From: Candidatus Sungiibacteriota bacterium | GTDB lineage: Bacteria > Patescibacteriota > Minisyncoccia > Sungbacterales > HO2-52-23 | Assembly: GCA_016432465.1 (NCBI GenBank) | Contig: CP066690.1 | Span: forward strand, 590,823 to 654,822 | Direction of reading: 5' to 3' | DNA length: 64,000 nt | Shown: positions 4,661 through 60,396 of the stretch, piece by piece | Numbering within the stretch: position 1 is the stretch's first letter | How the letters are laid out: the number at the start of each line of letters is the position of its first letter | Translations under genes and position numbers: made by a program | The notes under the pieces: model-generated | Seen by the model: only the letters and a program-made list of their open reading frames with translations | What the model was told of the DNA's origin: nothing | Databases searched by the model: none

Positions 4661-4669
4661 TAAGATAAG

Positions 4670-4693
4670 TCCGCTCACCAGAGCGGATTTTAT
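4670..4693. terminator. rho-independent terminator hairpin (TCCGCTC...GAGCGGA + TTTTAT) between convergent genes
   Basis: 7-bp GC stem followed by T-run. Confidence 0.55.
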
Positions 4694-4713
4694 AATTTTA
4701 AGCACCTAATTTG

Positions 4714-5265
4714 TTAGTGGTTATAATTATTCATGGCCTGCTCCGGCCCTCTTGTCAGAGCCTCTTCCAAAGCGCTGGCCGTCTTTTTTATAATTTTTCT
4801 GACCAGCCGCACCTCCTCCGGCGCCCATTTTTTTAAAACCAGTTTTTCCGCCGGGATATCGCGTCTAGCCGCAATGCCGATTCTAAAACGCCAAAAATCG
4901 CGGGTTTTGAGAACGCGCATCACGGATTCTACACCTTTATGTCCGGCCGAATGTTTTCCGAAAGAAAGTTTGGCATGTCCCAGAGGCAAATCCGCATCGT
5001 CATGCACCACGAAAATCTGTTTTGTTTTTACTTTAAAAAGTCTGGCGGCCGGCCCAACTGCGTTTCCGGACTTATTCATAAAAGTTTCAGGAAGCAGCAG
5101 GACCGCTTTTTTATTTTTGGAGACAAGCGCCTTAAATTTTTTGTTTAATTCAAAATCAGCCAGACCCGCCTTTTTCTGCCAGTCCGCTACAATTTCGCGT
5201 CCAACATTATGGCGCGTGTTTTTAAATTGTTCTCCCGGGTTTCCGAGACCAACAATAAGAATCAT
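4714..5265 (-). CDS. pth: peptidyl-tRNA hydrolase
   Basis: MILIVGLGNPG...NRHNVG...FRIGI signature. Confidence 0.9.
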   Translation of the reverse strand: MILIVGLGNPGEQFKNTRHNVGREIVADWQKKAGLADFELNKKFKALVSKNKKAVLLLPETFMNKSGNAVGPAARLFKVKTKQIFVVHDDADLPLGHAKLSFGKHSAGHKGVESVMRVLKTRDFWRFRIGIAARRDIPAEKLVLKKWAPEEVRLVRKIIKKTASALEEALTRGPEQAMNNYNH

Positions 5266-5303
5266 GTGCTTGCCAAACGCTTAAAAATAACTATAATATA
5301 TGT

Positions 5304-5885
5304 ATGACCGAAACACAAGAAAACCCTAACAACCGTTGGGGACGTGAAATTTTGGAAATTATTAAGGTGCTCGTGATTTCGCTTGCGATTGTCCTACCCA
5401 TCCGTTACTACATTGCCCAGCCCTTTATTGTGCGCGGCGCCTCCATGGAGCCGAATTTCCACGACAAGGAATATCTGATAGTTGACGAAGTGTCCTATCT
5501 TCTGCAAGAACCAAAACGCGGAGAAGCCATAGTATTTCGTTATCCTCTGGGCCCAAGACAGTTTTTCATTAAAAGAATCATCGGTCTTCCCGGAGAAGGG
5601 GTAGATATTAAAAACGGCAGGGTAAGGGTTATAAATAATGCTTACCCCGAGGGATTTGTGCTGGAGGAACCGTATCTGACACCACCGGGTCGGGCGACGC
5701 GGCCTGATTTGCGTATAAAACTTGCCCAAGGGGAGTATTTTGTTATGGGAGACAACCGCGACTTCAGTTCTGACTCCCGAGTGTGGGGAACTCTAAACAA
5801 AAAATTTATTGTGGGGCGTGCCCTCTTCCGCGCCCTGCCCGTTACGAGTCTTGGGTTTGTTGCTAACTACGCGGTTGATTACTAA
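5304..5885 (+). CDS. lepB: signal peptidase I
   Basis: N-terminal TM helix, GASMEP Ser box, GDNRDFSSDSR box. Confidence 0.9.
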   Translation: MTETQENPNNRWGREILEIIKVLVISLAIVLPIRYYIAQPFIVRGASMEPNFHDKEYLIVDEVSYLLQEPKRGEAIVFRYPLGPRQFFIKRIIGLPGEGVDIKNGRVRVINNAYPEGFVLEEPYLTPPGRATRPDLRIKLAQGEYFVMGDNRDFSSDSRVWGTLNKKFIVGRALFRALPVTSLGFVANYAVDY

Positions 5886-7211: not shown

Positions 7212-7559
7212 ATGGACTGTATCTTTTGTAAAATCTCAAAAGGTGAAGTAAGCTCCGAAGTTGTCTTTGAGGATGACGATGTTAAGGTTTTTAAAGATAT
7301 TCATCCCAAGGCTCCGGTGCATCTTTTGGTCATCCCCAAAATTCATATCCAGTCCATCGCGCATCTTGAGGCAGACCACAGTGACGTAATTACGAAGTTG
7401 ATATATACTGCCAAAAAAATTGCCGGAGACCTGGGTCTTAAGGGGTATAAACTGATTTTTAATGTGGGGCGCGAGGGCGGGCAGGTAGTTGACCATCTGC
7501 ACCTGCATATTTTGGGTGGCTGGTCGAACATAGAAGACCCGGATAAGTTTAGAGTTTAA
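7212..7559 (+). CDS. HIT family hydrolase
   Basis: histidine triad HLHLHILGG. Confidence 0.85.
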   Translation: MDCIFCKISKGEVSSEVVFEDDDVKVFKDIHPKAPVHLLVIPKIHIQSIAHLEADHSDVITKLIYTAKKIAGDLGLKGYKLIFNVGREGGQVVDHLHLHILGGWSNIEDPDKFRV

Positions 7560-9658: not shown

Positions 9659-10878
9659 TCGCGGCTTTAGATGTCGGCACCTCCACGGTTCAGACCGTAG
9701 TGGCCGAAAAGAAAAAAGGAGAAGAAACCCTCCGTATTTTAGGTATAGGAATGGTCCCATCAGTCGGCATCAGACGCGGGGTGGTGGTTGATCTTGAGGA
9801 TGCTGCCTCTTCCATCCGAAAATCCGTGGCCGAAGCCCAGCGGGCCGCTGGTGTTCCTGTCAGGTCGGTTTGGCTAAATGTGGGCGGCTCCCACATTTCT
9901 GTATCATCTTCACGCGGGGTGGTGGCAGTATCGCGGGCTGACGGCGAAATTTCTCCGGAAGATGTTAGACGGGCCATTGCCGCTGCGGAAACCTTTATCC
10001 CCAAAAATCCCAATAAAGAGATTTTGCATATGATTCCCCGTGATTTTAAAGTTGATCACGAAGCAGGGATTAAGGATCCGGTGGGCATGCATGGAGTGCG
10101 CTTGGAAGTGGACACTCTGATTATTGAATGTTCGGCCCCATTTTTAAAAAATCTTTTCAAATGTGTAGAAGGAGCGGGTCTGCGGGTAGAGGATTACGTG
10201 TTTTCACCCTTGGCCGCGGCTGACGCCGTTCTAACTAAAAGGCAGAAAGAGTTGGGGGTTATGCTTCTTGATTTGGGGGGCGGCACGGCAAGTTTTATGA
10301 TCTTTGAAGAAGGAGTGCCTATTCATGCCGGGGTGATTCCTATCGGAGGAAACCACATTACCAACGACGTTGCCATTGGTTTTAGAACACATGTAGACGT
10401 TGCAGAAAGAATTAAAACTACTCATGGATCTTGTTTGCCGTCAGAACTTCCCAAACGGGATACTATTCGTTTGGCCGAATTTATACCCGATGAAGCCGGT
10501 CAGTATTCACGCAAAGAACTCGCCGAAATAATAGAGGCCCGACTAAGAGACATTTTTGAACTCTTACAAAAAGAATTAAAAAAAGTTGACAGAGCCCAAC
10601 TTTTACCTGCCGGTATAGTTTTAGTTGGCGGTTCGGTCCTTATGCCGGGCATTGTGGAATTAACCAAACGGGAACTTAAACTACCGACAGAAATAGGGTG
10701 TCCCGAGGAGTTTCTAAATTCTATTGACGACAAGGTGGCGCCTGCTTTTGTTCCGGTTCTGGGTCTGGCTAAATGGGCAGGTACAAGGGTTGCGGAGTCT
10801 CGCTCTATTTTAGGAGGGCACAGATCGTCTGGCGGCGAGGGGACTTTTATCCGTTGGCTGCGGTCGCTTCTGCCCTAA
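9643..10878 (+). CDS. ftsA: cell division protein FtsA
   Basis: actin-fold ATPase, ALDVGTS...GGGT motifs, ftsA-ftsZ synteny. Confidence 0.9.
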   Translation: MARNLIAALDVGTSTVQTVVAEKKKGEETLRILGIGMVPSVGIRRGVVVDLEDAASSIRKSVAEAQRAAGVPVRSVWLNVGGSHISVSSSRGVVAVSRADGEISPEDVRRAIAAAETFIPKNPNKEILHMIPRDFKVDHEAGIKDPVGMHGVRLEVDTLIIECSAPFLKNLFKCVEGAGLRVEDYVFSPLAAADAVLTKRQKELGVMLLDLGGGTASFMIFEEGVPIHAGVIPIGGNHITNDVAIGFRTHVDVAERIKTTHGSCLPSELPKRDTIRLAEFIPDEAGQYSRKELAEIIEARLRDIFELLQKELKKVDRAQLLPAGIVLVGGSVLMPGIVELTKRELKLPTEIGCPEEFLNSIDDKVAPAFVPVLGLAKWAGTRVAESRSILGGHRSSGGEGTFIRWLRSLLP

Positions 10879-10890
10879 GATCCAAGCCTA

Positions 10891-11030
10891 CCCGCGCACC
10901 AGAGGGCCATGGGCTTTACCCGTGGGTGAATGACCCTCGGTGCGGGGTTCCGCCCCACGCGCGAGCGTGGGAGGAACCCCGTAACACGGGGTGCCACGCG
11001 CTCTGCGCGTGGGGCTCCACAAATTTTTTG
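10891..11030 (+). repeat. GC-rich nested hairpin element ending in a T-run (ftsA-ftsZ intergenic)
   Basis: CCCGCGCACC..GGTGCGGGG, GGGGTTCCGCCCCACGCGCGAGCGTGGGAGGAACCCC, CCACGCGCtctGCGCGTGG then TTTTTTG. Confidence 0.5.
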
Positions 11031-12373: not shown

Positions 12374-12435
12374 GAAAATACACATTAAAATATTTAATAT
12401 TTTACAAAAGTTCTCTTTCGCCCGGACGGCCTTGT

Positions 12436-12563
12436 CCCCCACCTATTTTGAACTAGCGCCAGCATAGATTAAACCTTCTATTGCCTGCGGCAGTGATCAG
12501 CCCGGGCTGGAAGTTTACTAATTTAGCAATTTACGACTTTGAGTTGTTCAAAATAGGTGGGGG
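12436..12563 (+). promoter_or_regulatory. long-range 18-bp perfect stem (CCCCCACCTATTTTGAAC / GTTCAAAATAGGTGGGGG) enclosing ~92 nt; 3' arm is the nrdJ SD and abuts the start codon
   Basis: exact inverted repeat; 3' arm GGTGGGGG immediately precedes ATG 12564. Confidence 0.5.
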
Positions 12564-15305
12564 ATGAACCGAGGAGGGGTGAAAGAGAATTTTTGTCTCA
12601 AAAATAATATGCCTAAAGCCATCGTGCATCGTGATATTGTTCAGGGTCGCATTCCAACCAAAAAAATTCCGCTCCGGCGTATCTTAACAAAAGAAGGCAC
12701 GCATCCTTTTGCCGAGGTTGAGTGGAAAAAAGTGACCATAACGGTGCGCGGCATAAATGGTCATGTTGAAGAACGGGAACTGGAGTTTCCGGCATTTTGG
12801 TCGGAGAATGCAACCGCCATTGCCGGCTCCAAATATTTTCGCGGCCGTATCGGTTCTCCGGAACGCGAGTCGTCCGCCCGGTCCATGGTTGCACGCGTTG
12901 CTCACACAATTCGGGAGTGGGGCATGCAGTTTGGATATTTTGACGAAGACCAAGAAGCCAACATATTTGAAGACGAACTAACTCATATTTTGTTGCATCA
13001 GAAAGCCGCGTTTAATTCTCCGGTATGGTTTAATGTCGGTGTAGAATCGCCTGCGCAGTGCTCTGCTTGTTTTATACTTTCCGTAGATGACAACATGGAG
13101 TCAATTCTCACCTGGATTTACAACGAAGGCATGATTTTCAAACGCGGCTCCGGAACCGGAGTGAATTTATCACCGTTGCGTTCGTGTCTGGAAACCCTTT
13201 CCAAGGGCGGACATTCTTCGGGCCCCGTTTCTTTCATGCGCGGAGCGGATGCGGTGGCAGGAATGATTGCCTCGGGCGGGTCAACAAGACGAGCCGCCAA
13301 AATGGTGGTTCTAAACATTGACCACCCGGACATAATGAGGTTTATACGCTGCAAGGCGGAAGAAGAAAAAAAGGCGCGAGCCCTGATACAGGCAGGCTAC
13401 AACATGTATGACTTAAATAACGAGGCTTGGCATTCTATCCAGTATCAAAATGCCAATAATTCGGTCCGGGTCACGGACGAATTTATGACTGCGGTGGAAA
13501 ATGACGAGAAGTTTGCCACGCGGCTGGTTCAAACAGGAAAAGTTGCGCAGGAGTACCGAGCGAGAGACCTTATGCAGCAGATCGCGCAGGCCGCATGGGA
13601 ATCTGGAGATCCGGGAATGCAATACGATACCACGATTAATAAATGGCACACTTGTCCTAACAGCGGAAGGATTAATGCCTCTAACCCCTGCGCCGAATAT
13701 ATGCACTTAGACGATTCTGCCTGTAACCTTGCCTCCATTAACGTTTTAAAATATTTGAATTCTGACGGTAGTTTTAATGTACATGATTTTATACATACAG
13801 TTGACGTTGTTATCTTGGCGCAAGATATTATTGTGGGCGCTTCAAGTTATCCGACGGAACGAATCACCAAAAACGCCCACAATTTTCGTCAGCTAGGTCT
13901 GGGGTACGCAAACCTTGGAGCGCTTCTGATGACTTGGGGTTTTCCTTATAGCTCCGACGAAGCGCGGCATAGCGCCGCGGCCATAACTGCACTTATGTGC
14001 GGAGAAGCGTATCGCTATTCGGCTGAGATTGCACGCCGTATGGGTCCCTATGCTGGTTACAAAATCAACAAGGAGTCGCAGATGAATGTGGTTGCCATGC
14101 ACCGCGAAGCCACGAGTCGTGTACGTGAGAGTAAGGTGGCGGATAGAAACATTTATACTGCCGCTAAAAGATCTTGGGACGAGGCCTTGGTTCTTGGAAA
14201 GAAATATGGAGTGCGCAATTCGCAAGTTACGGTCATTGCGCCGACCGGAACCATCGCTTTAATGATGGACTGCGCCACCACGGGGGTGGAGCCGGAATTT
14301 GCGCTGATAAAGACTAAAAATTTGGTAGGCGGCGGCACTATGAAATTTGTAAACACTGCGGTTCCGGAAGCTCTGAAGCGATTGGGGTACAGCGAGGAAG
14401 AAGTACGGGTCATTGTTGAGTATCTGGAGAAGCAGGGGACTATTGAGGGTGCGCCTAGTCTGAAAGAAGAACATCTGGCGGTTTTTGATTGTGCTGTCAA
14501 ACCAACTAACGGTAAAAGATCAATTCCTTGGCAGGGACATGTGAAGATGGTTGCGGCAGTCCAGCCCTTTATTTCCGGCGCGATTTCCAAAACATTTAAT
14601 ATGCCCAACGAAACCACTGCTGAAGAAATCATGCAGGCCTATATTATGGGTTGGAAACTGGGGCTTAAGGCCTTTGCAGTGTATCGCGATGGTTCCAAGG
14701 CGGCCCAACCGTTGATTACCTCAACTTCCGGCGCAAGCAAGAAGCTGGTAAAACCAGTACGTCGTAGGCTTCCCGCAACTCGTCCTTCCGAAACTCACAA
14801 GTTTTCCATTGCCGGACACGAGGGTTACCTGACCTATAGCACTTATGAAAATGGCGACTTGGCAGAAATTTTTATCCGGATGTCAAAACAGGGATCTACC
14901 TTGGCCGGGCTTCTGGACTCTTTTGCTATTTCAATTTCCATTGCGCTTCAGCACGGAGTGCCGCTGAAAACTCTCGCGCGGAAATTTGTGTACGGAAGGT
15001 TTGAGCCGGCAGGATACACGGAAAATCCGGCTATTCAGGTTGCCACCTCCATCACTGATTACATTTTCAGGTACCTTGCGCTCCGCTTTCTTGGACAAGA
15101 TGATCTGGATGAGTTGGGAGTTAAGGCGCCGCCCAAAGAAATGGAAGCTATGACCAAGCAAGTGATTGGCGCCCAGAAGGCCCTGCCCGAGGAAAAAACC
15201 GTGGTCTATGCAGACAGCATGTGTCGCGAATGCGGCGGTATGATGATTCAGACCGGATCCTGCAAAACCTGTTTTCAATGCGGGGCGACTTCAGGGGGAT
15301 GTTAA
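12564..15305 (+). CDS. nrdJ: adenosylcobalamin-dependent (class II) ribonucleotide reductase
   Basis: SNPCAEY active-site box, long monomeric class II architecture, C-terminal CxxC..CxxC zinc ribbon. Confidence 0.8.
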   Translation: MNRGGVKENFCLKNNMPKAIVHRDIVQGRIPTKKIPLRRILTKEGTHPFAEVEWKKVTITVRGINGHVEERELEFPAFWSENATAIAGSKYFRGRIGSPERESSARSMVARVAHTIREWGMQFGYFDEDQEANIFEDELTHILLHQKAAFNSPVWFNVGVESPAQCSACFILSVDDNMESILTWIYNEGMIFKRGSGTGVNLSPLRSCLETLSKGGHSSGPVSFMRGADAVAGMIASGGSTRRAAKMVVLNIDHPDIMRFIRCKAEEEKKARALIQAGYNMYDLNNEAWHSIQYQNANNSVRVTDEFMTAVENDEKFATRLVQTGKVAQEYRARDLMQQIAQAAWESGDPGMQYDTTINKWHTCPNSGRINASNPCAEYMHLDDSACNLASINVLKYLNSDGSFNVHDFIHTVDVVILAQDIIVGASSYPTERITKNAHNFRQLGLGYANLGALLMTWGFPYSSDEARHSAAAITALMCGEAYRYSAEIARRMGPYAGYKINKESQMNVVAMHREATSRVRESKVADRNIYTAAKRSWDEALVLGKKYGVRNSQVTVIAPTGTIALMMDCATTGVEPEFALIKTKNLVGGGTMKFVNTAVPEALKRLGYSEEEVRVIVEYLEKQGTIEGAPSLKEEHLAVFDCAVKPTNGKRSIPWQGHVKMVAAVQPFISGAISKTFNMPNETTAEEIMQAYIMGWKLGLKAFAVYRDGSKAAQPLITSTSGASKKLVKPVRRRLPATRPSETHKFSIAGHEGYLTYSTYENGDLAEIFIRMSKQGSTLAGLLDSFAISISIALQHGVPLKTLARKFVYGRFEPAGYTENPAIQVATSITDYIFRYLALRFLGQDDLDELGVKAPPKEMEAMTKQVIGAQKALPEEKTVVYADSMCRECGGMMIQTGSCKTCFQCGATSGGC

Positions 15306-15316
15306 TTTCGCTTCGG

Positions 15317-15438
15317 AAATATGCTTTGAAAAACTTCGCGCCGCCCCACCGAGGCGGCGCTCATCACGGGTCGGCCTCGCTCGCTCACTTCGTTCGCACC
15401 GTGGCCGCTCGTCCTCCCAGTGTTTTCAAAACATATTT
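15317..15438. mobile_element. miniature inverted-repeat element (family shared with 27961-28091 and 34170-34348)
   Basis: TIR GAAATATGCTTTGAAAAAC / GTTTTCAAAACATATTTC; right sub-terminal CGTCCTCCCAGTGTTTTCAAAA matches the other copies. Confidence 0.55.
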
Positions 15439-15555
15439 CCTCGCTTTACAGTTTTTCCCCACTGTCTCGAAAACGCACAGGCTCGTTTTATAAACCCAAA
15501 TGTTCAAACTTTAAATATTGAAATTTTGCAGCGATCCTTGTTTTTGGATTTGTTT

Positions 15556-17003: not shown

Positions 17004-17059
17004 AAAATTTTATCTTAACACTTTTTGACGATCGTCAAAAAGTGTTAAGATAAAATTTT
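17004..17059. repeat. 56-bp perfect palindrome centred on GACGATCGTC
   Basis: AAAATTTTATCTTAACACTTTTTGACGATCGTCAAAAAGTGTTAAGATAAAATTTT is its own reverse complement. Confidence 0.9.
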
Positions 17060-25808: not shown

Positions 25809-25877
25809 AGTGCTTGACAAAATACCAGTTTGTCTGGTACTATAATAGCACGAGGCTCTTTACAATGGGGGATAACA

Positions 25878-26834
25878 ATGAAGCGGTTCCTTACGGTCGC
25901 GGCCATTTTTGTTTTACTTTTTGGTTTGACCGCGCTAAGTGAAGCGCAAACAACGACGTGTACTGGAACATCAGTAAACTGTAGCAGTAATGCCGGTGGA
26001 GCTGGTGGTCAAGGTGGTAATGCGACAGGTGGGAATGCGACTGCCACAACCGGGAACCAGACTAACCAGCAGACCAATGACCAAACAAACCAACAGACTA
26101 ACCAGCAGACCAATGACCAAACAAACCAACAGACTAATCAGCAGACAACTACCCAGACCCAGAGTCAGGGTGATCAAAGTCAGTCAAATAAGCAGGAGAC
26201 TAAGGTGAGTACTCCAGTACAACCAGTTCCAGTTCCGTCCCCGAACATCACAATGCCCAATGCCACTCAGCCGATTAAACCCGAGGGTTGGGTCAATAAT
26301 TTTGCATTTAAGCCTTCAAAGATGACGTATGAGCAGGCCGAACGTTGTGCTGGGGGAAATGTGGAGAGTTCTTGGGATGGAGGTAAGGTGAAGATGTCGC
26401 GTAGTATCATACTATTTTGGCTAGACAATATGAAATTTCCTACTGCTGATTCCATGGATAATTACGTTGGAACAGCCAAGGCTTCGGATTACGAGCGATC
26501 TTCAAGTATGGCAGTACTTTGTTCGGCAGCACTAAAAGCAATGAGAAATGGTGCTGAAGTAGGGTTTGTGGACTACGTTCATCGTCCCGAGAATCATACC
26601 TCAAGTCGTGGCATTGGCGGAACATTCGGCTTTTCCGGGGTTCCCGGAGGCGGCGGAAACCCGTATGCTATTGCCGGCGGAGGCGGGCCAATGTTTGGAA
26701 GTTCTGATACCCATGTTCGTGGAAGACTCATCGTGCATATCCAGGGTTTTTGCGGTGACCCCTGCCAGGATCAGACAACAAAGAAAGACCCAGGTGATTA
26801 TAAATTCACGTCGGACCTCTACTCGTCAAACTAA
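25878..26834 (+). CDS. secreted low-complexity repeat protein (TNQQTNDQ repeats)
   Basis: signal peptide MKRFLTVAAIFVLLFGLTALSEA; 36-bp tandem repeats 26050-26150; start taken at 25878 inside listed ORF. Confidence 0.55.
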   Translation: MKRFLTVAAIFVLLFGLTALSEAQTTTCTGTSVNCSSNAGGAGGQGGNATGGNATATTGNQTNQQTNDQTNQQTNQQTNDQTNQQTNQQTTTQTQSQGDQSQSNKQETKVSTPVQPVPVPSPNITMPNATQPIKPEGWVNNFAFKPSKMTYEQAERCAGGNVESSWDGGKVKMSRSIILFWLDNMKFPTADSMDNYVGTAKASDYERSSSMAVLCSAALKAMRNGAEVGFVDYVHRPENHTSSRGIGGTFGFSGVPGGGGNPYAIAGGGGPMFGSSDTHVRGRLIVHIQGFCGDPCQDQTTKKDPGDYKFTSDLYSSN

Positions 26835-27348: not shown

Positions 27349-27816
27349 ATGAGAAGGAAAAAGAAATTTCAACGAGAAATAACCTCCGATCAAAAATACA
27401 GCAACGTACAGGTTGCTAAATTTATTAACTACGTTATGCGTAAGGGGAAAAAATCTACCGCCCAGAGGGTTGTTTATAAAACTTTTGATTTGATTGAAAA
27501 AAAATATAAACAGGATCCGCTTGGTGTATTTACCACGGCAGTGCAAAATGCGGGGCCAACTCTTGAAGTACGTTCGCGCCGCATCGGCGGCGCAACTTAT
27601 CAGGTGCCGCGCGAAGTGAGGGGAGATAGAAGGCAAGCCTTGGCGTTTCGTTGGATTCTGGGTGCAGCGCGTTCCAAAAAAGGAAAACCCATGCACGAGA
27701 AATTAGCCGAAGAGTTGGTGGCCGCCACAAAGAATGAAGGTGTGGCAATAAAGAAAAAACTGGACACCCATCGTATGGCCGAGGCAAACAAAGCATTTGC
27801 GCATTTCGCGTGGTAA
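27349..27816 (+). CDS. rpsG: ribosomal protein S7
   Basis: ends ...[12 protein letters not shown]. Confidence 0.9.
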
Positions 27817-27867
27817 GAACCCGAGAATGCGAAGCGCCAACCTTCAAAATTATATAAAAGGCGCGGA

Positions 27868-27937
27868 GTCCCGCACCGAACGAAGTTCTGGTGCGGGAGC
27901 AGAGGCCAATAAGGCGTTTGCTCACTTCGCGTGGTAG
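27868..27937 (+). pseudogene. hairpin (GTCCCGCACC...GGTGCGGGA) plus a second, synonymous-diverged copy of the rpsG 3' end ([12 protein letters not shown]-stop)
   Basis: gcagaggccaataaggcgtttgctcacttcgcgtggtag re-encodes the last 12 codons of rpsG with 9 synonymous changes. Confidence 0.6.
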
Positions 27938-27960
27938 ATTGCTCGCTAAAGCGGTTCCCT

Positions 27961-28091
27961 CGCCCCGCTCTTTTGTAAACACGCTCGTTTCGCTCCTGCG
28001 GCGAAACTCGCTAATAGTCGGCCGAAGTTTTCTCTGCCTATGGCAGAGAACCAAGCAAACTCCGTCCTCCATTGTTTACAAAAGGGCGGGG
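27961..28091. mobile_element. miniature inverted-repeat element, copy 1
   Basis: TIR CGCCCCGCTCTTTTGTAAAC / GTTTACAAAAGGGCGGGGCTCG; internal GAAGTTTTC and CCGTCCTCCATTGTTT shared with copy at 34170. Confidence 0.6.
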
Positions 28092-28186
28092 CTCGACCGC
28101 TTTACGCTCGCTTATAGAATTTTATTAACGGCCTCGGCCGCATTCTTACTCGCAGTGGGCATTTTTATTTTGTAAAGTATAATTTT

Positions 28187-30316
28187 ATGCCCCGTGACTA
28201 TCCAATAGAAAGAACAAGAGATATAGGTATTATAGCTCATATAGATGCTGGGAAAACGACAGTCACCGAGCGCGTTTTGTTTTACACTGGCGTATCGCAT
28301 AAAATCGGCGAAGTGCATGAGGGAACAACTGTGATGGACTGGATGGAACAGGAGCGGGAACGGGGAATTACTATTACGGCCGCAGCCACCACTTGTTTTT
28401 GGACGCCGACCTATCTCACAACCAACAACCAACAACCAACAACCAACGACGAAAAAAATGAATACCGTATAAACATAATTGATACCCCGGGGCACATTGA
28501 TTTTACGGTGGAGGTTCAGCGCTCATTGCGAGTTTTGGACGGCGCCGTAGTGGTTTTTGACGGCGTGGCCGGAGTGGAGCCGCAATCAGAAACCGTCTGG
28601 CGGCAAGCCGATAAATTTCACGTGCCGCGCATTTGTTTTATCAACAAACTTGACCGCATGGGCGCATCTTTTGAAAAATCTCTTGCTTCAATTTATGAAC
28701 GGCTTACACCCAATGCCGTTGCCGTAACAATTCCGATTGGACACGAGCAAGAGCATGAGGGAGTGATTGATTTGATGCGTATGAGAGCAGTGCGTTTTTT
28801 GGGAGAGCACGGCGAGCAAATAGAGCTTTCCGATATTCCGGAAAATTTAAAATCTTCAGCCGAGGAATGGCGCCACAAAATGGTTGAGAAAATTTCCGAG
28901 TCGGACGAGGCGCTTACGGAAAAATATCTTGAGGGTAAGGAAATTTCCATAGAGGAATTGCGTCGGGCTCTACGTAAAGCAACTCTTGCATATAAACTCG
29001 TTCCGGTTTTCTGCGGCTCGGCCCTAAAAAATAAAGGAGTACAGCTTGTTCTGGACGGTGTTATTGATTATCTGCCTTCACCCCTTGATCTTCCTCCGGT
29101 AAAAGGCATCAATCCCAAAAGCGGCGCGGAAGAGTCACGTGAGGCCAAAGACGATGCCCCTTTTGCCGCGCTTGCTTTTAAACTTCAGTCCGATCCGTAT
29201 GTGGGACAGCTTACTTATTTTCGTGTTTATTCGGGAACGTTGAATGCCGGCTCTTATGTTTTAAATTCTGTGAAAGGAGAGCAAGAACGTGTGGGCAGAA
29301 TTTTGCGGATGCATGCCAACTCCCGCGAAGAGCTAAAAGAAATTAACGCCGGAAATATCGGCGCCATTGTTGGTTTGAAAAATACCCATACCGGAGATAC
29401 CCTCTGCGACCCCGAGCACCCTATTGTGCTGGAAAAAATTATTTTTCCGGAGCCGGTGGTGTCCCTTAAAATTGAACCTAAAACCAAAGCCGATCAGGAA
29501 AAAATGGGGATTGCTCTGCATCGTCTTGGTGAGGAAGACCCCACCTTCCGGATTAAGGGTGATCTGGAAACAGGAGAGACCATTATCTCCGGAATGGGCG
29601 AGCTGCATTTGGAAATTATCGTGGACAGAATGAAGCGTGAGTTTTCGGTTGCGGCCAATGTGGGCCGGCCGCAGGTTGCCTACAAGGAAACAATTAAAAA
29701 ACTGGCCACTGCCGAAGGGAAATATATTCGTCAGTCAGGAGGCCGCGGACAGTACGGACATGTATGGCTTCGGGTGGAGCCGCGGGAGCGCGGCAAGGGC
29801 TTTGAGTTTGTTGATGAAATTAAGGGTGGTATAATTCCCAAAGAGTTTATACCGGCAGTTGAGAAAGGAATTAAGGAAGCAATGGAAAAGGGAGTGCTGG
29901 CAGGATATCCGATGGTGGATATGGAGGTTGCTCTTTATGACGGTTCGTACCACGAAGTTGACTCTTCGGAAGCTGCTTTTAAAATCGCGGGGTCAATTGC
30001 TCTGCAGGAGGCATCTCGCAGAGCAGGGCTTGTGATGCTTGAGCCTATTATGAGAATAGAGGCCGTTCTGCCCGAACAATTTTTGGGAGAGGTGACGGGA
30101 GACTTAAATTCTAAGCGCGGCCGGATTGAGGAAATGTCAGAGCGGGGGCTTGGAATTAAAGTAATTGATGCCAAAGTTCCTTTATCCGAGATGTTTGGAT
30201 ATGTTACGACCCTGCGGTCGTTGACACAGGGAAGGGCCTCCTTCACAATGGAGTTTGATCATTATGAAGAAGTGCCGAACAATATAGCCCAATTGATTAT
30301 TGAAGGAAAAAAGTAA
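28187..30316 (+). CDS. fusA: elongation factor G (with a short [11 protein letters not shown] low-complexity insertion in the G domain)
   Basis: [17 protein letters not shown] etc. Confidence 0.95.
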
Positions 30317-30461
30317 TTTCACAATGTCCCGACGATCGCTTTGCGATGTCGGGATCCCGACTTCCTTATTGATGAATATAAAACGGAGCGTCGGGAGAAT
30401 CTGACCACTATGAGGAGGTGCCGCAGAATATAGCGCAGTTAATTATTGAAGGAAAAAAATA
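30317..30461 (+). pseudogene. hairpin insert followed by a diverged second copy of the fusA 3' end (…[19 protein letters not shown]-stop)
   Basis: TTCACAATG occurs at 30242 and 30318; second copy = first copy + 67-bp insert containing GTCCCGACGATCGCtttGCGATGTCGGGA hairpin. Confidence 0.6.
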
Positions 30462-30479
30462 GGCGCCGTAGGGCGCCAG

Positions 30480-38524: not shown

Positions 38525-38526
38525 AT

Positions 38527-38630
38527 CCCCCCACCTTCCCAGCGGGGTATTGGACCCCGCTGGGAAGGATTTCTACGGCGCCCATTCATCCCCGCAGCAA
38601 GCTGCGGAGTATTCTGGGAAGGTGGGGGGA
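38527..38630 (+). repeat. GC-rich nested hairpin element (CCCCCCACCTTCCCAG...CTGGGAAGGTGGGGGG outer; CCTTCCCAGCGGGG/CCCCGCTGGGAAGG inner)
   Basis: read directly. Confidence 0.6.
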
Positions 38631-38645
38631 TAAAAGACATAATTT

Positions 38646-39053: not shown

Positions 39054-39258
39054 GTCCCGTTAGAGAGGAGGGTCGTCTCTGACGGGGGTTACAATATGTA
39101 TAGGAACCATAGAACCAAGTTAGTTATCAAGATTAACCATAAATCCCGTTAGAGATATGGAACTAAATGCGGTTTGTAGGATATCAATGTATGCGGAACG
39201 CGTCTTACTGCATGTTTCCATACGTAATAAATCTCTAACGGGATAAATCTCTAACGGG
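39054..39258. repeat. cluster of CCCGTTAGAGAT / ATCTCTAACGGG motif copies (2 direct, 2 inverted)
   Basis: same 12-mer forms the TIR of the lepA-5' insert at 58548-58616. Confidence 0.55.
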
Positions 39259-39450
39259 ATGAAAGTTAATGAATTAATAAAAAAATCCCAAGAGGAGCTA
39301 GAGGTACTGCTTGAGGAAAAGAGGCAAAAACAGGAAGAAATGGGGCGGTTGCTTCATCAGAAAAAGATAAAAAATGTAAAGGAGCTCTGGGCTATTAAAA
39401 AAGACATTGCCCGCATATTAACTATTTTAAAATCCTATGAGGCATCTTAA
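39259..39450 (+). CDS. rpmC: ribosomal protein L29
   Basis: operon position, coiled-coil 63 aa. Confidence 0.8.
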   Translation: MKVNELIKKSQEELEVLLEEKRQKQEEMGRLLHQKKIKNVKELWAIKKDIARILTILKSYEAS

Positions 39451-40923: not shown

Positions 40924-41076
40924 GGCATCCCCCGCCAATTTTGCGGGGTATGACACAAGCGAAACGCTTCGCCCAAAGAGGGACGGCCTATCCGGCCACG
41001 CATTTCGCGAAAGTTACACACGAGCATCAAAATTGGACAGTATACCTGATTCAACGGCAAAATTGGAGGGGGATGC
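40924..41076. mobile_element. IR-bounded ~150-bp element (GGCATCCCCCGCCAATTTTG / CAAAATTGGAGGGGGATGC)
   Basis: 19-bp imperfect terminal inverted repeat in the rplE-rpsN spacer. Confidence 0.45.
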
Positions 41077-51083: not shown

Positions 51084-51872
51084 ATGTGGTATAGCAACGC
51101 AGAACAGTTTAAGGGTTTAAACGGATACGTAATAAACGGTGTTTGGTATCCGCGTGTAACCAAAATTTTAGACGTTAAAGCCAAACCCGCCTTGGATAAT
51201 TTCTTGCGTGAGATGGAAAACTACGCCTCCGCCGAGGATGTTAAGAACAGATCTGCTGCCGAGGGGTCGTTGGTGCATGATATCATTGAGAAACTGATGG
51301 TGGGCAGTATAGTAGAGGTGCCTCCTGAAATAAAGCCGGCTGTAGAGACATTTCAGCGCTTTAACGAAGAAAGAAAGATTGTTTTCCAACCGGATTTTGT
51401 GGAACGTCAAATTTTATCATTGCAACATCGTTATGCGGGTACGGTGGACGCCTTGGCCCTTGTTGACGGTAAGTTTGGTGTTTTGGACATAAAAACCTCC
51501 ACGGGGTTTTATCCGGAGTACAATCTTCAGACCGCCGCTTACGTCTCGGCGCTTCAAGAGTTTGAAGTAAAGCGAAATTTCATGCTGCCTCGCGATATTG
51601 AGACACGCTGGATTTTAAGAATTAACCAGCACCGTATTTGCAACAGATGCGGCGCAACACTCCGTGAAAAAGGGGGCAGGAGCAAGGTACGGAATGGCAA
51701 AAACAGAAGCGGTTCCTGTCCAGACGAAAATCACGAGTGGGGATCCATGGTGGGAGATGTGGAGCTTCGGGAATTCCCTTATTTTTATAAGGACATTAAG
51801 GCTTTTATGGCGGCCAAAATTCTCTGGGAGTGGGAAAATGATTATTGGCTTAGACAAATTAAGTATATATAA
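51084..51872 (+). CDS. PD-(D/E)xK nuclease (YqaJ/Cas4-like) with C-terminal Cys cluster
   Basis: GTVDALALVDGKFGVLDIKTS (D...D-x-K), QTAAYVSAL, CNRC...C. Confidence 0.5.
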   Translation: MWYSNAEQFKGLNGYVINGVWYPRVTKILDVKAKPALDNFLREMENYASAEDVKNRSAAEGSLVHDIIEKLMVGSIVEVPPEIKPAVETFQRFNEERKIVFQPDFVERQILSLQHRYAGTVDALALVDGKFGVLDIKTSTGFYPEYNLQTAAYVSALQEFEVKRNFMLPRDIETRWILRINQHRICNRCGATLREKGGRSKVRNGKNRSGSCPDENHEWGSMVGDVELREFPYFYKDIKAFMAAKILWEWENDYWLRQIKYI

Positions 51873-52362: not shown

Positions 52363-52977
52363 ATGCCCAAAACAGATATGACGTTAAAACCGAACTTTAC
52401 TGAAAAAATACTGGAATTTCTGCAAGAACGGGCGGAAATTTCTGTAGACATGCTTAAAGCGATGTTTTTATCACCGCGTGAACTCTCGCGGGATACCAGA
52501 CGGTTTTTGACTTATGGACCCCGGCCCTTTAAAACGAGCTGGGCTGAACAGTATCGTAAACACAGAGTTTATGCAGCTACTCTGAGCAGGCTTAAACGAC
52601 AAGGTTTAGTGACAAAGAAGAGGCAAAATGGCAGCAGCATGTGGCGTATCACAAAGAAAGGGAGTACTAGGCTAGAAAAGATTAAAAAGAGACACAAAAA
52701 TCCACTCTCACTTACCACGGCCCATTTTAAACCGGCCCGTGAACGTTGTTGGGTGATTATAACTTATGATATTCCCGAAAAAGAGAAGGCAAAACGAGGG
52801 TGGCTACGGGGTTGCTTAAAATCGCTTCAATTCTCTTTTCTCCAGAAAAGTGTGTGGATAGGAAACAGAATGATCCCAGAAGATTTTATCAAGGCCCTCA
52901 AAGAGCGCAACATACTTTCCGGCGTGCATATTTTTCTAATAAAGAAGGGCGGCACGATTGAACAGCTTCCTTCATAG
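52363..52977 (+). CDS. winged-helix DNA-binding protein with C-terminal Cas2/VapD-like beta-alpha-beta segment (possibly PaaX-like)
   Basis: N-terminal wHTH-like; C-terminal VIITYDIPEKEKAKRGWLRGCLKSLQFSFLQKSVWIG resembles Cas2 N-terminal YDV..KRR..L..yG.RvQ.SVF. Confidence 0.4.
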   Translation: MPKTDMTLKPNFTEKILEFLQERAEISVDMLKAMFLSPRELSRDTRRFLTYGPRPFKTSWAEQYRKHRVYAATLSRLKRQGLVTKKRQNGSSMWRITKKGSTRLEKIKKRHKNPLSLTTAHFKPARERCWVIITYDIPEKEKAKRGWLRGCLKSLQFSFLQKSVWIGNRMIPEDFIKALKERNILSGVHIFLIKKGGTIEQLPS

Positions 52978-52982
52978 ATATT

Positions 52983-53017
52983 GTTAACACTACGTTCGAT
53001 CGAACGTAGTGTTAACA
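52983..53017. repeat. 35-bp perfect palindrome TGTTAACACTACGTTCGATCGAACGTAGTGTTAACA
   Basis: read directly. Confidence 0.9.
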
Positions 53018-53564: not shown

Positions 53565-53607
53565 CAAAACAAAATAACTCGCACTGCGAGTTATTTTGTT
53601 TTGTTCC
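53559..53607 (+). terminator. perfect 20-bp-arm hairpin terminator after rnpB
   Basis: GGAACAAAACAAAATAACTCGCActgCGAGTTATTTTGTTTTGTTCC. Confidence 0.7.
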
Positions 53608-58505: not shown

Positions 58506-58547
58506 ATGCAGAACATACGTAATTTTTGTATATTGGCGCACATTGAC
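58506..58547 (+). pseudogene. relic first copy of the lepA 5' end (MQNIRNFCILAHID)
   Basis: encodes a diverged duplicate of lepA residues 1-15, interrupted at TTGAC by the 58548-58616 insert and resuming with CACGGCAAG (HGK). Confidence 0.55.
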
Positions 58548-58616
58548 CCCGTTAGAGATCCGATGCCCAAGGCATCGGCAGTCCCGACGTCGCGTCGGGA
58601 CTTATCTCTAACGGGG
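58548..58616. mobile_element. 69-bp IR element (CCCGTTAGAGAT...ATCTCTAACGGG) flanked by TTGAC direct repeat
   Basis: 12-bp TIR, internal GTCCCGACGTCGCGTCGGGAC hairpin, 5-bp flanking duplication. Confidence 0.6.
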
Positions 58617-58629
58617 TTGACCACGGCAA

Positions 58630-60396
58630 GTGGATAACAATATCAGAAATTTTGTTATTATTGCTCACATAGACCACGGCAAAAGTACCCTTGCTGATCG
58701 TTTTTTGGAACTTACCGGGACAGTGGAGAAACGCAGGATGCGAGAGCAGTTTTTGGATACGATGGCCCTTGAGCGGGAACGGGGCATCACTATAAAAATG
58801 GCGCCGGTGCGGATGGGGTGGCAGGGCTACACATTTAATCTTATTGATACTCCCGGCCACGTGGACTTTACCTACGAAGTTTCCCGCGCCTTGGCCGCAG
58901 TGGAGGGCGCGATTTTGCTGGTGGATGCAACGCAGGGCATTCAGGCCCAAACCCTTGCCAATTTTCAGCTTGCGCAAAAAGAGGGGCTTGTTGTGATTCC
59001 CGCCATAAATAAAATTGATCTTCCTTCAGCAGAGATTGTGAGGACCGAAGCAGAGTTTGTTTCTTTGCTTGGTGCGTTGCCGGAAGACATTTATAAAATT
59101 TCTGCCAAAACCGGTGAGGGCGTTGAGGAACTTTTGAGGGCGGTAATAAAAAAGGTGCCGCCGCCGCAAAATAAAAACGAGGAGATGCTGCGCGCGCTTA
59201 TTTTTGATTCTCACTTTGATCCTTATCAGGGTGTGATTGCTTACGTGCGGATTAGGGAAGGATTCGTCAAAAAAGGAGAACGTATTTTTTTTCTGGCAAC
59301 AAATTCAACGGCAGAAATTTTGGAGACAGGTGTTTTTATGCCCGAGAGGGTCCCTAAAAATATGTTGTCCGCCGGAGAAATTGGTTTCCTAGCCACCGGA
59401 GTCAAAGAGACGGAACGGGTTAGGGTAGGAGATACGATTGCCAAAAATAAATCTGCGGACTCCTTAACCGGATATCGTGAGCCCCAAGCAGTAGTTTTTG
59501 CCTCAATTTTTCCAGAAAACCAGGACGATTATGAACCATTGCGCGAATCGTTAAAAAAATTAAAACTAAACGACGCTGCTTTGACTTTTGAGCCGGAGGA
59601 GTCAGGGGCGCTGGGACGCGGAATGCGTTCTGGGTTTTTGGGCGTACTTCATATGGAAATTGTGGCGGAGCGGTTAAGGCGAGAATACGGACTTAAGGTA
59701 GTATTTACCAATCCATCCGTTGCCTTTCGTGTTAAAACAAAAAGCAGTGAAGACTTTATTTATTCGGCGGCAAAAATGCCGCAGCCTCATGAGATTGAGT
59801 GGGTTAAAGAGCCGTGGGTTAGGGTTGAGGTGATAACACCAAAGGAATACCTTGGAACTTTTGGTTCTTTGGTAAGCGAAAAAAGCGGAAAAATTTCTGA
59901 CACGTCAAATCTGGCCGGAGAACGGCTGCTGTTTAAGTTTGAGGCGCCGCTTCGTGAAATCATTGTTGATTTTTATGATAAATTAAAAAGCGTATCGCAG
60001 GGGTTCGCCTCTATGTCTTACGAGATTATTGATTATCGGCCGGCGGATTTGGTGAGAATGGAGATTTTAGTTGCCGGTCAAAATCAGCCGGCGCTTGCCG
60101 AGATTGTTCCGCGGGGAAAAGTGTATTTTACAGCACGTGAGCGTGTGCAAAAATTAAAAGAGCTTCTGCCGCGCGAACTTTTTGCCGTGGCGATTCAAGC
60201 CGAAGTTGAAGGACGGATTATTGCTCGTGAGACCGTGCCCGCGTTAAAAAAAGACGTTACTGGCTATCTTTACGGAGGCGATCGTACTAGAAAAATGAAA
60301 CTTTGGAAGAAGCAACAGAAAGGGAAAAAGAAATTAAAATCTAGGGGGCGGGTAGAGATTCCACCGGAGATATTTTTGAAGTTATTAAAAAAATGA
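58630..60396 (+). CDS. lepA: elongation factor 4 (GTG start)
   Basis: IIAHIDHGKSTL, DTPGHVDF. Confidence 0.9.
   Translation: MDNNIRNFVIIAHIDHGKSTLADRFLELTGTVEKRRMREQFLDTMALERERGITIKMAPVRMGWQGYTFNLIDTPGHVDFTYEVSRALAAVEGAILLVDATQGIQAQTLANFQLAQKEGLVVIPAINKIDLPSAEIVRTEAEFVSLLGALPEDIYKISAKTGEGVEELLRAVIKKVPPPQNKNEEMLRALIFDSHFDPYQGVIAYVRIREGFVKKGERIFFLATNSTAEILETGVFMPERVPKNMLSAGEIGFLATGVKETERVRVGDTIAKNKSADSLTGYREPQAVVFASIFPENQDDYEPLRESLKKLKLNDAALTFEPEESGALGRGMRSGFLGVLHMEIVAERLRREYGLKVVFTNPSVAFRVKTKSSEDFIYSAAKMPQPHEIEWVKEPWVRVEVITPKEYLGTFGSLVSEKSGKISDTSNLAGERLLFKFEAPLREIIVDFYDKLKSVSQGFASMSYEIIDYRPADLVRMEILVAGQNQPALAEIVPRGKVYFTARERVQKLKELLPRELFAVAIQAEVEGRIIARETVPALKKDVTGYLYGGDRTRKMKLWKKQQKGKKKLKSRGRVEIPPEIFLKLLKK

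Follow-up and report, generated by a model that had tools for sequence, protein, structure and literature searches.

Within the 64-kb stretch of DNA analyzed here (the window), from a bacterium of the Candidate Phyla Radiation with a tiny genome, the rpsG 3′ end, the fusA 3′ end and the lepA 5′ end are each present in two copies. The paired gene ends share 73-80% DNA identity and encode almost the same protein, and a hairpin element lies inside or adjoining the silent copy at all three places. A fourth, decayed case is found at the rplP 3′ end. The elements are non-coding and sit within the first or last few codons (10-20) of essential, highly conserved translation genes. The gene stays intact because a second, differently spelt copy of its end stands beside the element. 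As a reasonably probable explanation, we favor that MITE- or REP-like hairpin elements occupy these gene ends alongside an imported, allelic replacement terminus, with the native end left as a remnant.

The rpsG and fusA genes have doubled 3′ ends with double hairpins

The window rpsG product is identical to a protein named S7 of Candidatus Sungiibacteriota. The rpsG site is laid out as follows.

27349..27816, + strand: rpsG (ribosomal protein S7), working gene (ORF list; Pfam Ribosomal_S7)
27778-27816, + strand: functional copy of the doubled rpsG end, the last 13 codons
27817..27829, + strand: 13-nt stretch GAACCCGAGAATG straight after the rpsG stop
27830..27898, no strand: rpsG double-hairpin element (DNA fold z = -4.3)
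27834-27864: hairpin 1 of the element, with an AT-rich loop
27869-27898: hairpin 2 of the element, TCCCGCACC..GGTGCGGGA
27899..27937, + strand: displaced rpsG 3′-end remnant, 12 residues plus stop (8 differences in 39 nt)

The copies at 27778-27816 and 27899-27937 encode the same 12 residues plus stop, and all eight differences between them are synonymous. Judging from the sequence, GAACCCGAGAATG (27817-27829) probably derives, in degenerate form, from the codons (..R M) just ahead of the insertion point; it may alternatively be aligned to the MITE terminal repeat. At the same position, the related locus L254 carries ..AAGGATG, matching its own AGG ATG codons. Hairpin 1 is conserved at the L254 rpsG site, and an element of about 110 nt with related termini stands in place of hairpin 2. 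The rpsG insert aligns with the fusA insert both ways (score 29 as the reverse complement and 22 forward); by this comparison the two inserts appear related, and their relative orientation is ambiguous.

The fusA site shows a comparable arrangement.

28187..30316, + strand: fusA (EF-G), working gene
30251-30316, + strand: functional copy of the doubled fusA end, preceded by TTCACAATG at 30242-30250
30318..30326, + strand: second TTCACAATG copy, one base past the fusA stop
30327..30396, no strand: fusA 70-nt double-hairpin element (z = -4.3)
30397..30462, + strand: displaced fusA 3′-end remnant, 21 residues plus stop

The fusA element consists of two units, each TCCCGAC..GTCGGGA, and it (30327-30396) bears neither a terminal-repeat nor a target-duplication signature. 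The copies at 30251-30316 and 30397-30462 show 13 differences in 66 nt, and their translations differ at two residues in 22 (F to S, N to Q). Downstream of the remnant there is a terminator-like hairpin, GGCGCCGTAGGGCGCC, followed by a T run. An element of the same architecture occupies the same fusA codon in L256, where the equivalent 10-mer, TTTTACCATG, matches the L256 upstream sequence. The 10-mer agrees with the host's own sequence at 9/10 positions in the window and 10/10 in L256, which fits poorly with a segment travelling along with the element. We also considered whether the window and L256 had exchanged two alleles at fusA; the distance matrix lends such a swap no support. A 7-residue out-of-frame match upstream of fusA (28101 versus 28281) was judged to be a chance match.

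A MITE splits the displaced lepA start

At lepA, the duplication affects the 5′ end.

58506..58637, + strand: upstream ORF made of the displaced lepA start (MQNIRNFCILAHID..HGK), element read-through and 13 nt of lepA sequence
58547..58616, no strand: lepA-site MITE, 70 nt, terminal inverted repeats CCCCGTTAGAGAT/ATCTCTAACGGGG, two internal hairpins (z = -12)
58630..60396, + strand: lepA (EF4), working gene, GTG start at 58630
58630-58682, + strand: functional copy of the doubled lepA 5′ end

On either side of the MITE stands TTGA (58543-58546 and 58617-58620), a duplication of the target, and a perfect 14-nt inverted repeat spans 58546-58559/58604-58617. Between the lepA copies there are 12 differences in 45 nt and two in 15 residues. 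The upstream ORF begins with an ATG at 58506 and ends with a TAA (58635-58637) that overlaps codons 2-3 of the working lepA. This stop/start geometry is conserved between the window and L261, and translation of lepA is probably kept by termination-reinitiation, with the stop of the upstream ORF overlapping the new start codon. Internal starts have been annotated for several LepA homologues in the database, and in at least two instances (L260/L263 and L262) the gene is intact and was miscalled. At both fusA and lepA, 9-13 nt of gene sequence lie between the working copy and the element, and no simple one-step model predicts this.

In summary, the sequence bears out the three tandem gene-end duplications of the original prediction at the places it gave, including the doubling of the first ~15 lepA codons with the upstream copy split by an inverted-repeat element. 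Two details needed correction. The rpsG copies lie at 27778-27816 and 27899-27937 as claimed, with eight substitutions and not nine. The doubled fusA end also stands, and the insert described as 67 bp is the 70-nt double hairpin at 30327-30396.

The duplications are not assembly artefacts

The original prediction left room for a presence/absence polymorphism collapsed into one contig. The window derives from a metagenome-assembled genome and the copies resemble allelic variants, so an assembler might have joined two strain variants of each gene end in tandem. We checked Logan contigs assembled separately from seven SRA runs (SRR12113383, SRR12113384, SRR12113419, SRR12113420, SRR12113424, SRR12113430 and SRR12113431), obtaining fourteen contigs, of which twelve reach a duplicated site. 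All twelve single-run contigs (L162-L168, L171-L175) span both copies and are 100% identical to the window at every duplicated site. This agreement across seven separately assembled runs argues against an artefact and rules out both the joining of variants and a collapsed polymorphism. A k-mer assembler would not be misled by exact words as short as those shared by the copies (9-17 nt), and the same layout is present in MAGs of unrelated studies. We therefore give practically no weight to an assembly origin.

The copies diverged as working gene ends

We compared the copies with a null model in which an equal number of random substitutions was introduced (20,000 trials per case). A protein as little changed as the observed one was obtained in 0/20,000 trials per case, and in ≤1/20,000 for one case from another genome. 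The near-unchanged protein thus has P ≤ 5e-5 in each of six cases; the cases in other genomes were located via amino-acid identity, which biases the sample toward conserved remnants. Since the changes are almost only synonymous, both copies must have diverged in different lineages, each functioning there as a gene end, which in turn implies that one copy was imported from a different but related lineage. The synonymous-only divergence rules out a long simple target-site duplication, in agreement with the original prediction, and likewise an in-place duplication followed by neutral drift. A diversity-generating retroelement was also rejected, since the copy differences are not adenine-specific but mostly transitions of all kinds and synonymous; no reverse transcriptase was found among the window proteins scanned.

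An in-place origin could take another form, in which the terminal segment was duplicated in tandem, perhaps through slippage or template switching at the hairpin, and the working copy was later overwritten by allelic recombination. Formally, the layout is a tandem duplication: at 3′ ends the doubled segment begins shortly before the insertion point and ends with the stop, and at 5′ ends it begins with the start and extends slightly beyond the insertion point. Short segments adjoining the hairpins are identical to the host's own sequence (TTCACAATG; GACCACGGCAA; TTTTACCATG in L256), and the repeat of L117 (34 nt) is 97% identical. Patescibacteria are also thought capable of DNA uptake. However, such a course needs a later replacement tract that ends within the short working copy every time, and the remnant must meanwhile escape any amino-acid change. 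It also leaves unexplained why one duplication boundary is the exact start or stop codon in 9/9 cases, the young L117 case included, and why identical codons recur in distant lineages. We consider this course unlikely.

Returning to an imported terminus, we asked which copy is the foreign one. GC3 is lower in the working copy than in the remnant in 6/7 cases. From codon style and similarity to relatives, the direction of import is supported in L022 and in part in L025 (5′ site). In L022, the remnant has the GC-rich codon style of the clade and matches relatives at 79-82%, and the working end has a GC3 of 0.30 compared with 0.64 for the genome. Mismatches counted from the sequences show that this working end is ~27% diverged from the close relative L116, and the stretch just upstream ~10%. 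For the window's own cases, codon usage/codon likelihood and nearest-relative similarity favor neither copy as native.

A decayed rplP end and a MITE family

The fourth case, which is weak, lies between rplP and rpmC.

38646..39053, + strand: rplP (L16), working gene with a functional end
39055..39088, no strand: short MITE of the CCCGTTAGAG family, one base past the rplP stop, with differing flanks (TGAG/TTAC)
39089..39142, + strand: decayed rplP 3′-end remnant (..RTKLVIKINH-stop), weak case
39144..39259, no strand: 100-nt MITE of the same family with a TAAA target duplication, plus a 16-nt repeat of the MITE right end

The remnant resembles the working end (ACCAAGTT.GTTA..AAG). If the later MITE insertion is set aside, this remnant runs directly up to the rpmC start, as in the native operon. 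The last A of that insertion (39144-39259) forms part of the rpmC ATG.

Members of the CCCCGTTAGAG MITE family are non-coding, end in terminal inverted repeats of 11-14 nt and are present in many copies across genomes. Related terminal repeats occur at 39144-39243 and 39055-39088 in the window and also in L022, L025, L161 and L261. Simple insertions of the family carry perfect 4-bp duplications: TTGA in the window, TTGA in L261, TGGA in L025 (7497) and TCTG in L161. Elements with TCCC-beginning termini at 39144 and 38525 both have a TAAA duplication. In comparison, MITEs standing between a working end and a remnant have unmatched flanks (CACG/TCGC in L022; TGAG/TTAC at 39055 in the window), which would follow if each flank derived from a separate molecule.

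Hairpins with TCCCG..CGGGA stems are enriched in the window (9 observed versus 0.4 in shuffles), and the TCCCG(N)AC hairpin type occurs at only three window sites. The doubled ends involve at least two kinds of element, the MITE and the REP-like double hairpin. No autonomous partner with the MITE terminal repeats and a transposase was found in the window or the related loci retrieved. Scanning viral contigs for such a partner, we obtained a single additional copy of the MITE and saw no gene enclosed by paired repeats. Searching the window against Rfam, we found only the RNase P RNA and one tRNA, and no known structured RNA at the sites.

The same codons are occupied in distant relatives

We find the same codon occupied in other Sungbacteria, namely in L254 (rpsG), L256 (fusA) and L261 (lepA), each with an element of the same architecture and an intact remnant. 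L256 comes from GCA_049274875.1, and L254 and L261 are Logan contigs. Identity to the window is 92% for S7 of L254, 90% for EF-G of L256 and only 62% for LepA of L261. Analogous fusA 5′ and 3′ cases are present in Lloydbacteria (L025) and Kaiserbacteria (L022) genomes, and 5′-end duplications of a similar kind in L105 and L117. Empty sites, with the un-duplicated arrangement, are found in L081, L082, L255, L257/L258, L259, L262, L263 and L116; target positions are thus occupied in some lineages and empty in close relatives. The presence of this layout at the same codons in related bacteria makes a regular mobile-DNA process likelier than an accident. Together with the synonymous divergence, the recurrence at the same codons and the empty sites uphold the recombination- or homing-like import that the original prediction had proposed. 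Two further apparent repeats were discarded: that of the rpsG end in L039 is an out-of-frame chance match to the fusA start, and that in L082 (1-78 versus 1749-1826) reflects tandem paralogous genes with no terminus duplication.

The inserts encode no enzyme

We searched for an enzyme that could move the elements. Pfam scanning of the window proteins (about a dozen of ~60 genes) revealed no transposase, including the Y1 (HUH) type, no recombinase and no nuclease; a PD-(D/E)XK match at 51084-51872, from the Pfam scan of ten window proteins, is weak, sub-threshold and far from the sites. The inserts (70-300 nt) contain no ORF and hence no gene for a tyrosine/serine recombinase or an endonuclease.

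These results bear on whether the sites could be decayed attL/attR duplications of larger integrative elements or prophages, which brought a replacement terminus and left a hairpin-rich stump. An att-like layout is indeed present: direct repeats of the gene terminus flank the insert, the gene is completed by its nearer copy and the copies differ synonymously, as in the e14 icd/icdC pattern (PMC13626634). L105 and L117 also fit the repeat-insert-repeat layout. However, the inserts are always 70-300 nt long without an integrase or other gene, and no kilobase-scale insert flanked by gene-end repeats occurs in 160 related loci. The inserts belong to multi-copy MITE/hairpin families that are found as simple insertions too, and at the window fusA and lepA sites the hairpin sits inside the remnant rather than at the border of a shared core and the element. 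Such an origin is very unlikely.

Another possibility, which we regard as rather unlikely, is that the empty target is cut by an enzyme whose gene lies elsewhere (Y1/HUH transposase, TnpB/IscB-type RNA-guided nuclease or homing endonuclease) and that repair copies in the element with a recoded end. The recoded end would rescue the gene and make the occupied allele immune to cutting. Capture of the same codon, with intact remnants, in lineages as far apart as 62% LepA identity would be expected, as would the synonymous copy differences. The REP-like hairpins at rpsG and fusA all follow ATG (CAATG, CCATG, GAATG, GGATG) and lack a target duplication, as in IS200/IS605-type elements. In the relative L263, a Y1 transposase gene (PF01797, E = 9e-9) with four flanking 26-nt REP-like palindromes lies exactly at the murJ-lepA junction. 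Yet no such enzyme gene was found among the window proteins scanned or inside any insert, and the L263 palindrome resembles the window hairpins only weakly (12/15 bases, not above chance). The differences between copies are not clearly clustered at the insertion point (28% in the first 18 nt versus 19% in the rest), and the element type varies between sites.

Discussion

Our favored reading remains that hairpin elements and an imported replacement terminus came to occupy the gene ends together. Two kinds of element fill this role: true MITEs, recognizable by CCCCGTTAGAG terminal repeats and a 4-bp target duplication, and REP-like double hairpins. The protein is kept whole by the copy that continues the gene body, and the displaced terminus is silent, interrupted or bordered by the element. 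Spread is probably by homology-dependent, homing-like copying: an occupied allele would be copied into, or recombine with, an empty one, through a crossover within the gene body and a second one at either the element or the displaced terminus. Formally, this route would equal a Campbell-type integration or the homing of an element with its own rescue copy. Such a layout could enter the same codon again in further lineages, and the gene would survive.

Insertions within essential, universally conserved genes are normally lethal. Tiny non-coding elements appear to persist in such genes through their association with an extra gene end in another codon spelling. The codons shared by distant lineages suggest a recurrent, site-specific process. 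If that holds, short pieces of core genes move by this route between Candidate Phyla Radiation lineages, and the ribosomal-protein and elongation-factor genes that serve as phylogenetic markers acquire mosaic ends from it. The doubled ends also yield spurious small ORFs and wrong start-codon calls and can be mistaken for assembly errors.

Comparison with known systems

Our literature search on MITE/REP elements with gene-terminus duplications in Patescibacteria found nothing directly relevant. Like bacterial MITEs, the CCCCGTTAGAG family has terminal inverted repeats, target duplications and no coding capacity. Ordinary MITE insertions duplicate only a few bases, and to our knowledge a 30-75-nt allelic duplicate of the target gene terminus is no described feature of MITEs. 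The double hairpins share short paired palindromic units and the lack of a target duplication with REP/REPIN elements, which RAYT (Y1/HUH) transposases mobilize, and with IS200/IS605-derived palindromic elements. We know of no description of REPINs with duplicated gene termini. REPINs have been described as extragenic (PMC3116915). Relative to the REP/REPIN-RAYT system, the weak match to the L263 palindromes does not establish family membership for the window hairpins.

Many prophages and genomic islands use tRNA 3′ ends as attachment sites. In the case of e14 at E. coli icd, the gene reads into an element-borne terminus and the displaced terminus persists downstream as a pseudogene fragment (PMC13626634). 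The doubled ends resemble e14/phage 21 at icd/icdC in that the displaced native terminus is kept and the two copies differ mostly synonymously. Unlike e14/phage 21, the inserts here are geneless hairpins of 70-300 nt that sit at 5′ as well as 3′ ends, core translation genes are among the targets and the hairpin lies inside the remnant in two cases.

The classic Allomyces atp6 case involves a foreign C-terminus. In fungal mitochondria, homing-endonuclease genes are accompanied by partial C-terminal duplications of atp6, cob or rps3 (PMC6279837). Both there and here, a mobile insert at the 3′ end of a conserved gene comes with a duplicated C-terminal segment and the gene stays whole. Unlike the fungal inserts with their GIY-YIG or LAGLIDADG endonuclease ORFs, the inserts here contain no ORF, so any enzyme must act in trans.

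In the synthetic home-and-rescue (HomeR) drive, the insert in an essential gene brings along a recoded version of the 3′ part, leaving the rest of the native gene downstream without function (PMC7968924). HomeR is engineered, Cas9-driven and eukaryotic, whereas the nuclease here is hypothetical. It is doubtful that these are natural gene-drive-like elements, that is, gene-less hairpins homing into terminal codons of rpsG, fusA, rplP and lepA across Patescibacteria. The doubled gene ends nevertheless follow the same design logic as HomeR, and if the process is recurrent and site-specific, they may be a natural counterpart of engineered rescue-carrying gene drives.

Gene ends are present twice with diverged sequence

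Performing a translated self-comparison of the entire window (GC ~46%), we found strong cases of duplicated gene ends at rpsG (S7), fusA (EF-G) and lepA (EF4/LepA) only. Inspection of the rplP-rpmC spacer showed a fourth, decayed case at the 3′ end of rplP (L16). We call the terminus contiguous with the gene body the working copy, and its silent second copy the remnant or displaced end.

27778-27816, working end of rpsG (12 residues and stop; stop at 27816), with the second copy at 27899-27937
30242-30250, 9-mer TTCACAATG adjoining the fusA working copy, repeated at 30318-30326, 1 base past the stop
30251-30316, working end of fusA (final 22 codons; stop at 30316), with the second copy at 30397-30462
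30327-30396, fusA double hairpin (70 nt), directly after the second TTCACAATG copy
39053, stop of rplP
39055-39088, short MITE in the rplP-rpmC spacer
39089-39142, degenerate L16 C-terminus, a decayed remnant
58506, ATG of the displaced lepA start (first ~16 codons), interrupted by an inverted-repeat element
58547-58616, the lepA inverted-repeat element (MITE, 70 nt)

The rpsG and fusA ends thus occur twice, as originally predicted. The rpsG copies differ at 8 of 39 nt and every change is synonymous, so that the predicted synonymy stands while the predicted count of nine does not. The fusA copies differ at 13 of 66 nt with 2 residues changed; the insert between them exists but measures 70 nt, not 67 bp. 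The prediction that the lepA 5′ end is duplicated, with its upstream copy broken by an inverted repeat, was also confirmed: this copy resumes for 13 nt past the element, and then comes the working GTG start (58630). In both the window and L261, another Sungbacteria locus, an upstream ORF of 43-44 codons runs from the displaced start through the MITE, in frame, and the 13-nt segment, and its TAA occupies +5 to +7 counted from the lepA start. This conserved overlap suggests that lepA may be translated by termination-reinitiation. At rplP, a second MITE follows the L16 remnant and its final base is the A of the rpmC ATG. The MITE before rpmC (39228-39259) carries its right terminal repeat in tandem (TAAATCTCTAACGGGA twice).

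With the observed number of substitutions placed at random, none of 20,000 trials per window case left the protein as little altered as it is, and for the cases from other genomes at most 1 of 20,000 did so. For the rpsG, fusA and lepA elements, folding is far more stable than that of shuffled sequence (z = -4.3, -4.3 and -12, respectively). An assembler artefact, or the presence/absence polymorphism collapsed into one contig that had been proposed originally, could be weighed against an exact-protein look-up. It returned 14 Logan contigs, separate assemblies of seven SRA runs and all 100% identical to the window, 12 of which span a duplicated site (rpsG, L162-L164; fusA, L165-L168; lepA, L171-L175). 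The exact words common to both copies are just 9-17 nt long. The identical per-run contigs and these short words together exclude both explanations as far as the data allow.

The inserts are of two kinds

The inserts comprise a MITE family (small non-coding elements with terminal inverted repeats) and REP-like double hairpins (paired short palindromes). The MITE terminal repeats read (C/T)CCCGTTAGAG(A/G)T, and copies are also present in L022, a Kaiserbacteria MAG. Simple MITE insertions are flanked by exact 4-bp duplications of the target (TTGA at lepA, TGGA in the Lloydbacteria MAG L025, TCTG in the viral contig L161 and TTGA in L261), and a TAAA duplication flanks the MITE at 39144 and also the element at 38525, which is related and has TCCCCCC termini. 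In L025 (7497-7615), the MITE's final G and the TGGA duplication restore a GTG start. In comparison, MITEs between a working end and a remnant have mismatched flanks, as expected if each flank came from a different DNA molecule.

The hairpins at rpsG and fusA have feet TCCCG(N)AC..GT(N)CGGGA and lack terminal repeats and target duplications. They can be aligned with each other in both orientations (scores 29 and 22) and therefore appear related. The lepA MITE has the same small hairpin nested within it. Six further inverted-repeat elements (107-158 nt) directly adjoin start or stop codons, most with C-rich/G-rich termini (e.g. TCCCCC..GGGGGA):

671-828
12435-12564, whose final A plus TG makes the ATG of a 913-residue ORF
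15315-15440
27962-28092
38525-38631
40925-41076

The window also holds perfect loopless palindromes of 36-56 nt (17004-17059, 52982-53017, 53854-53899), intergenic, AT-rich and unlike the hairpin elements at the duplicated gene ends. The RNase P RNA gene (53063-53567; Rfam RF00010, 150 bits) is 505 nt long against a 367-position model, with three large insertions of 74 nt (12 in the model), about 25 nt and about 63 nt, and is followed by a palindrome with perfect 25-nt arms (53559-53609). An ORF at 25830-26834 contains a tandem peptide repeat of QTNQ/QTND units (26058-26147).

The same codons are occupied in other genomes

Our survey covered 160 loci around fusA, taken from public genomes and metagenomes; cases were detected by protein-level identity, which biases toward intact remnants. 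In L022, VAADIIASRK-stop occurs twice at the fusA 3′ end with 70% nucleotide identity and a CCCCGTTAGA MITE in between. L025 has fusA duplicated at both the 5′ and the 3′ end, and 5′-end duplications occur in a small gene of locus L105 and an L28-like gene of locus L117. At least two short repeat families are scattered over the Patescibacteria contig L117 in several copies (about 2759-2794, 3010-3096, 4884-4970, 7212-7244, 9665-9703 and 10854-10892), one of them present in the insert that interrupts the start of the L28-like gene.

Within Sungbacteria, the identical codons are occupied in L254 (rpsG), L256 (fusA) and L261 (lepA). L254, whose S7 is 92% identical to that of the window, continues past the rpsG stop with a short ..AAGGATG segment, a first hairpin homologous to the window's, and an element of ~110 nt with termini related to the window's second rpsG hairpin; next comes GCTGAAGCAAA (A E A ..), and there the contig stops. 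In L256 (EF-G 90% identical), the fusA stop is followed by TTTTACCATG, its own upstream 10-mer, and an 85-nt double hairpin (TCCCGA..TCGGGA); the second fusA end is intact (13 of 66 nt differ, 1 residue changed). L261, with a LepA only 62% identical, has the displaced start MDISRIRNFCILAHID, a same-family MITE at the same TTGA, and 13 nt of lepA sequence before the working start.

Related genomes also supplied the un-duplicated arrangement. The rpsG and fusA sites are empty in L081, L082, L255, L257/L258 and L259, the lepA site in L262 and L263, and the L022 site in its close relative L116. The rpsG-fusA spacer of L081, a close relative (~230 nt before 5001), holds a different long inverted repeat (GTCATTCCCGCGAAAGCGGGAATCCAGG ..) and an extra small ORF.

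Import most likely supplied the working end

In-place duplication followed by drift is ruled out, since both copies keep working-type sequence. We infer that the copies at each site diverged under purifying selection in separate lineages, in agreement with the original view that this is not a simple target-site duplication. Judged by their sequence, the intact remnants cannot be old neutral relics, as they are intact though the lineages differ by at least 15% in genome DNA. Either invasion of the same codon has recurred, or the remnants are being refreshed or kept by selection.

The L022 remnant shares the GC-rich codon preference of its clade (GC3 0.80; genome 0.64) and is 79-82% identical, by our count, to the fusA ends of loci L024 and L035. 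The L022 working end has a GC3 of 0.30 and is ~27% diverged from L116, against ~10% in the 42 nt upstream. GC3 of the working copy is below that of the remnant in 6 of 7 cases, and the codon log-likelihood summed over the seven favours the remnant as native by ~6 units. At rplP it is the remnant that adjoins the rpmC start, the native operon context. These data, mainly from two genomes, make import the most likely origin of the working end, which would leave the remnant as the displaced native end; the direction is not settled for the window's rpsG, fusA and lepA cases.

A copying model and candidate enzymes

In form, the layout matches a terminal segment duplicated in tandem, with the hairpin in the outer copy, and equally the outcome of a single homologous crossover with DNA bearing a gene terminus and a hairpin. 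Another view is homing by a unit that consists of a replacement terminus, a short gene-derived segment and the hairpin. We favour homology-dependent copying from an occupied to an empty allele; of its two junctions, one would fall within the gene body and the second at either the element or the remnant. Such copying would explain the seamless in-frame junction, the imported foreign allele, the mismatched MITE flanks and the same-codon recurrence. The copies would cease to resemble each other right at the start or stop codon, either because the lineages are unalignable beyond it or because a donor MITE abuts the codon. The model does not neatly fit the 9-13 nt of gene sequence between working copy and hairpin (fusA, rpsG, lepA), and does not explain the fusA 10-mer matching each host's own sequence.

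A scan of ten window proteins found no transposase, no integrase and no clear nuclease. A 204-residue protein (52363-52977) has a Cas2-like/PaaX central domain (PF20803, 1.9e-12) and a CRISPR_Cas2 match just under cutoff (6e-5); no CRISPR array was noticed nearby. The 4655-5470 stretch of L263, a related Sungbacteria contig shared with L260, holds a Y1 transposase gene (200 residues; Pfam Y1_Tnp, PF01797, E = 9e-9) between murJ and lepA. This gene sits 8 nt before the lepA ATG and has a 26-nt REP-like palindrome in four copies around it, the classic RAYT/REP arrangement. The rpsG/fusA hairpins are preceded by ATG in all four genomes and, like IS200/IS605-type elements, lack a target duplication. 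The L263 palindrome matches the window hairpins at 12 of 15 bases, not above chance, and the tie is a lead, not a finding. In five Sungbacteria LepA homologues outside the window (P0251, P0265, P0286, P0323, P0355), the GTPase domain is interrupted between ..PVRM.. and ..LNLIDTPGH by a ~165-residue in-frame insertion that contains a PD-(D/E)XK nuclease domain (PF13366) and looks like a mobile nuclease insertion.

Comparison with known systems

Our literature searches turned up no account of gene-terminus duplications linked to MITE or REP elements. The nearest parallel in logic is with integrative elements that supply the target gene with a replacement terminus, as e14 does at icd/icdC (PMC13626634). 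Also near are the endonuclease genes of fungal mitochondria, next to which the C-terminal parts of atp6 and cob are duplicated (PMC6279837), and engineered home-and-rescue drives have the same design (PMC7968924). Unlike these three systems, the window cases are miniature and gene-less, use both 5′ and 3′ termini, and target core translation genes in Patescibacteria.
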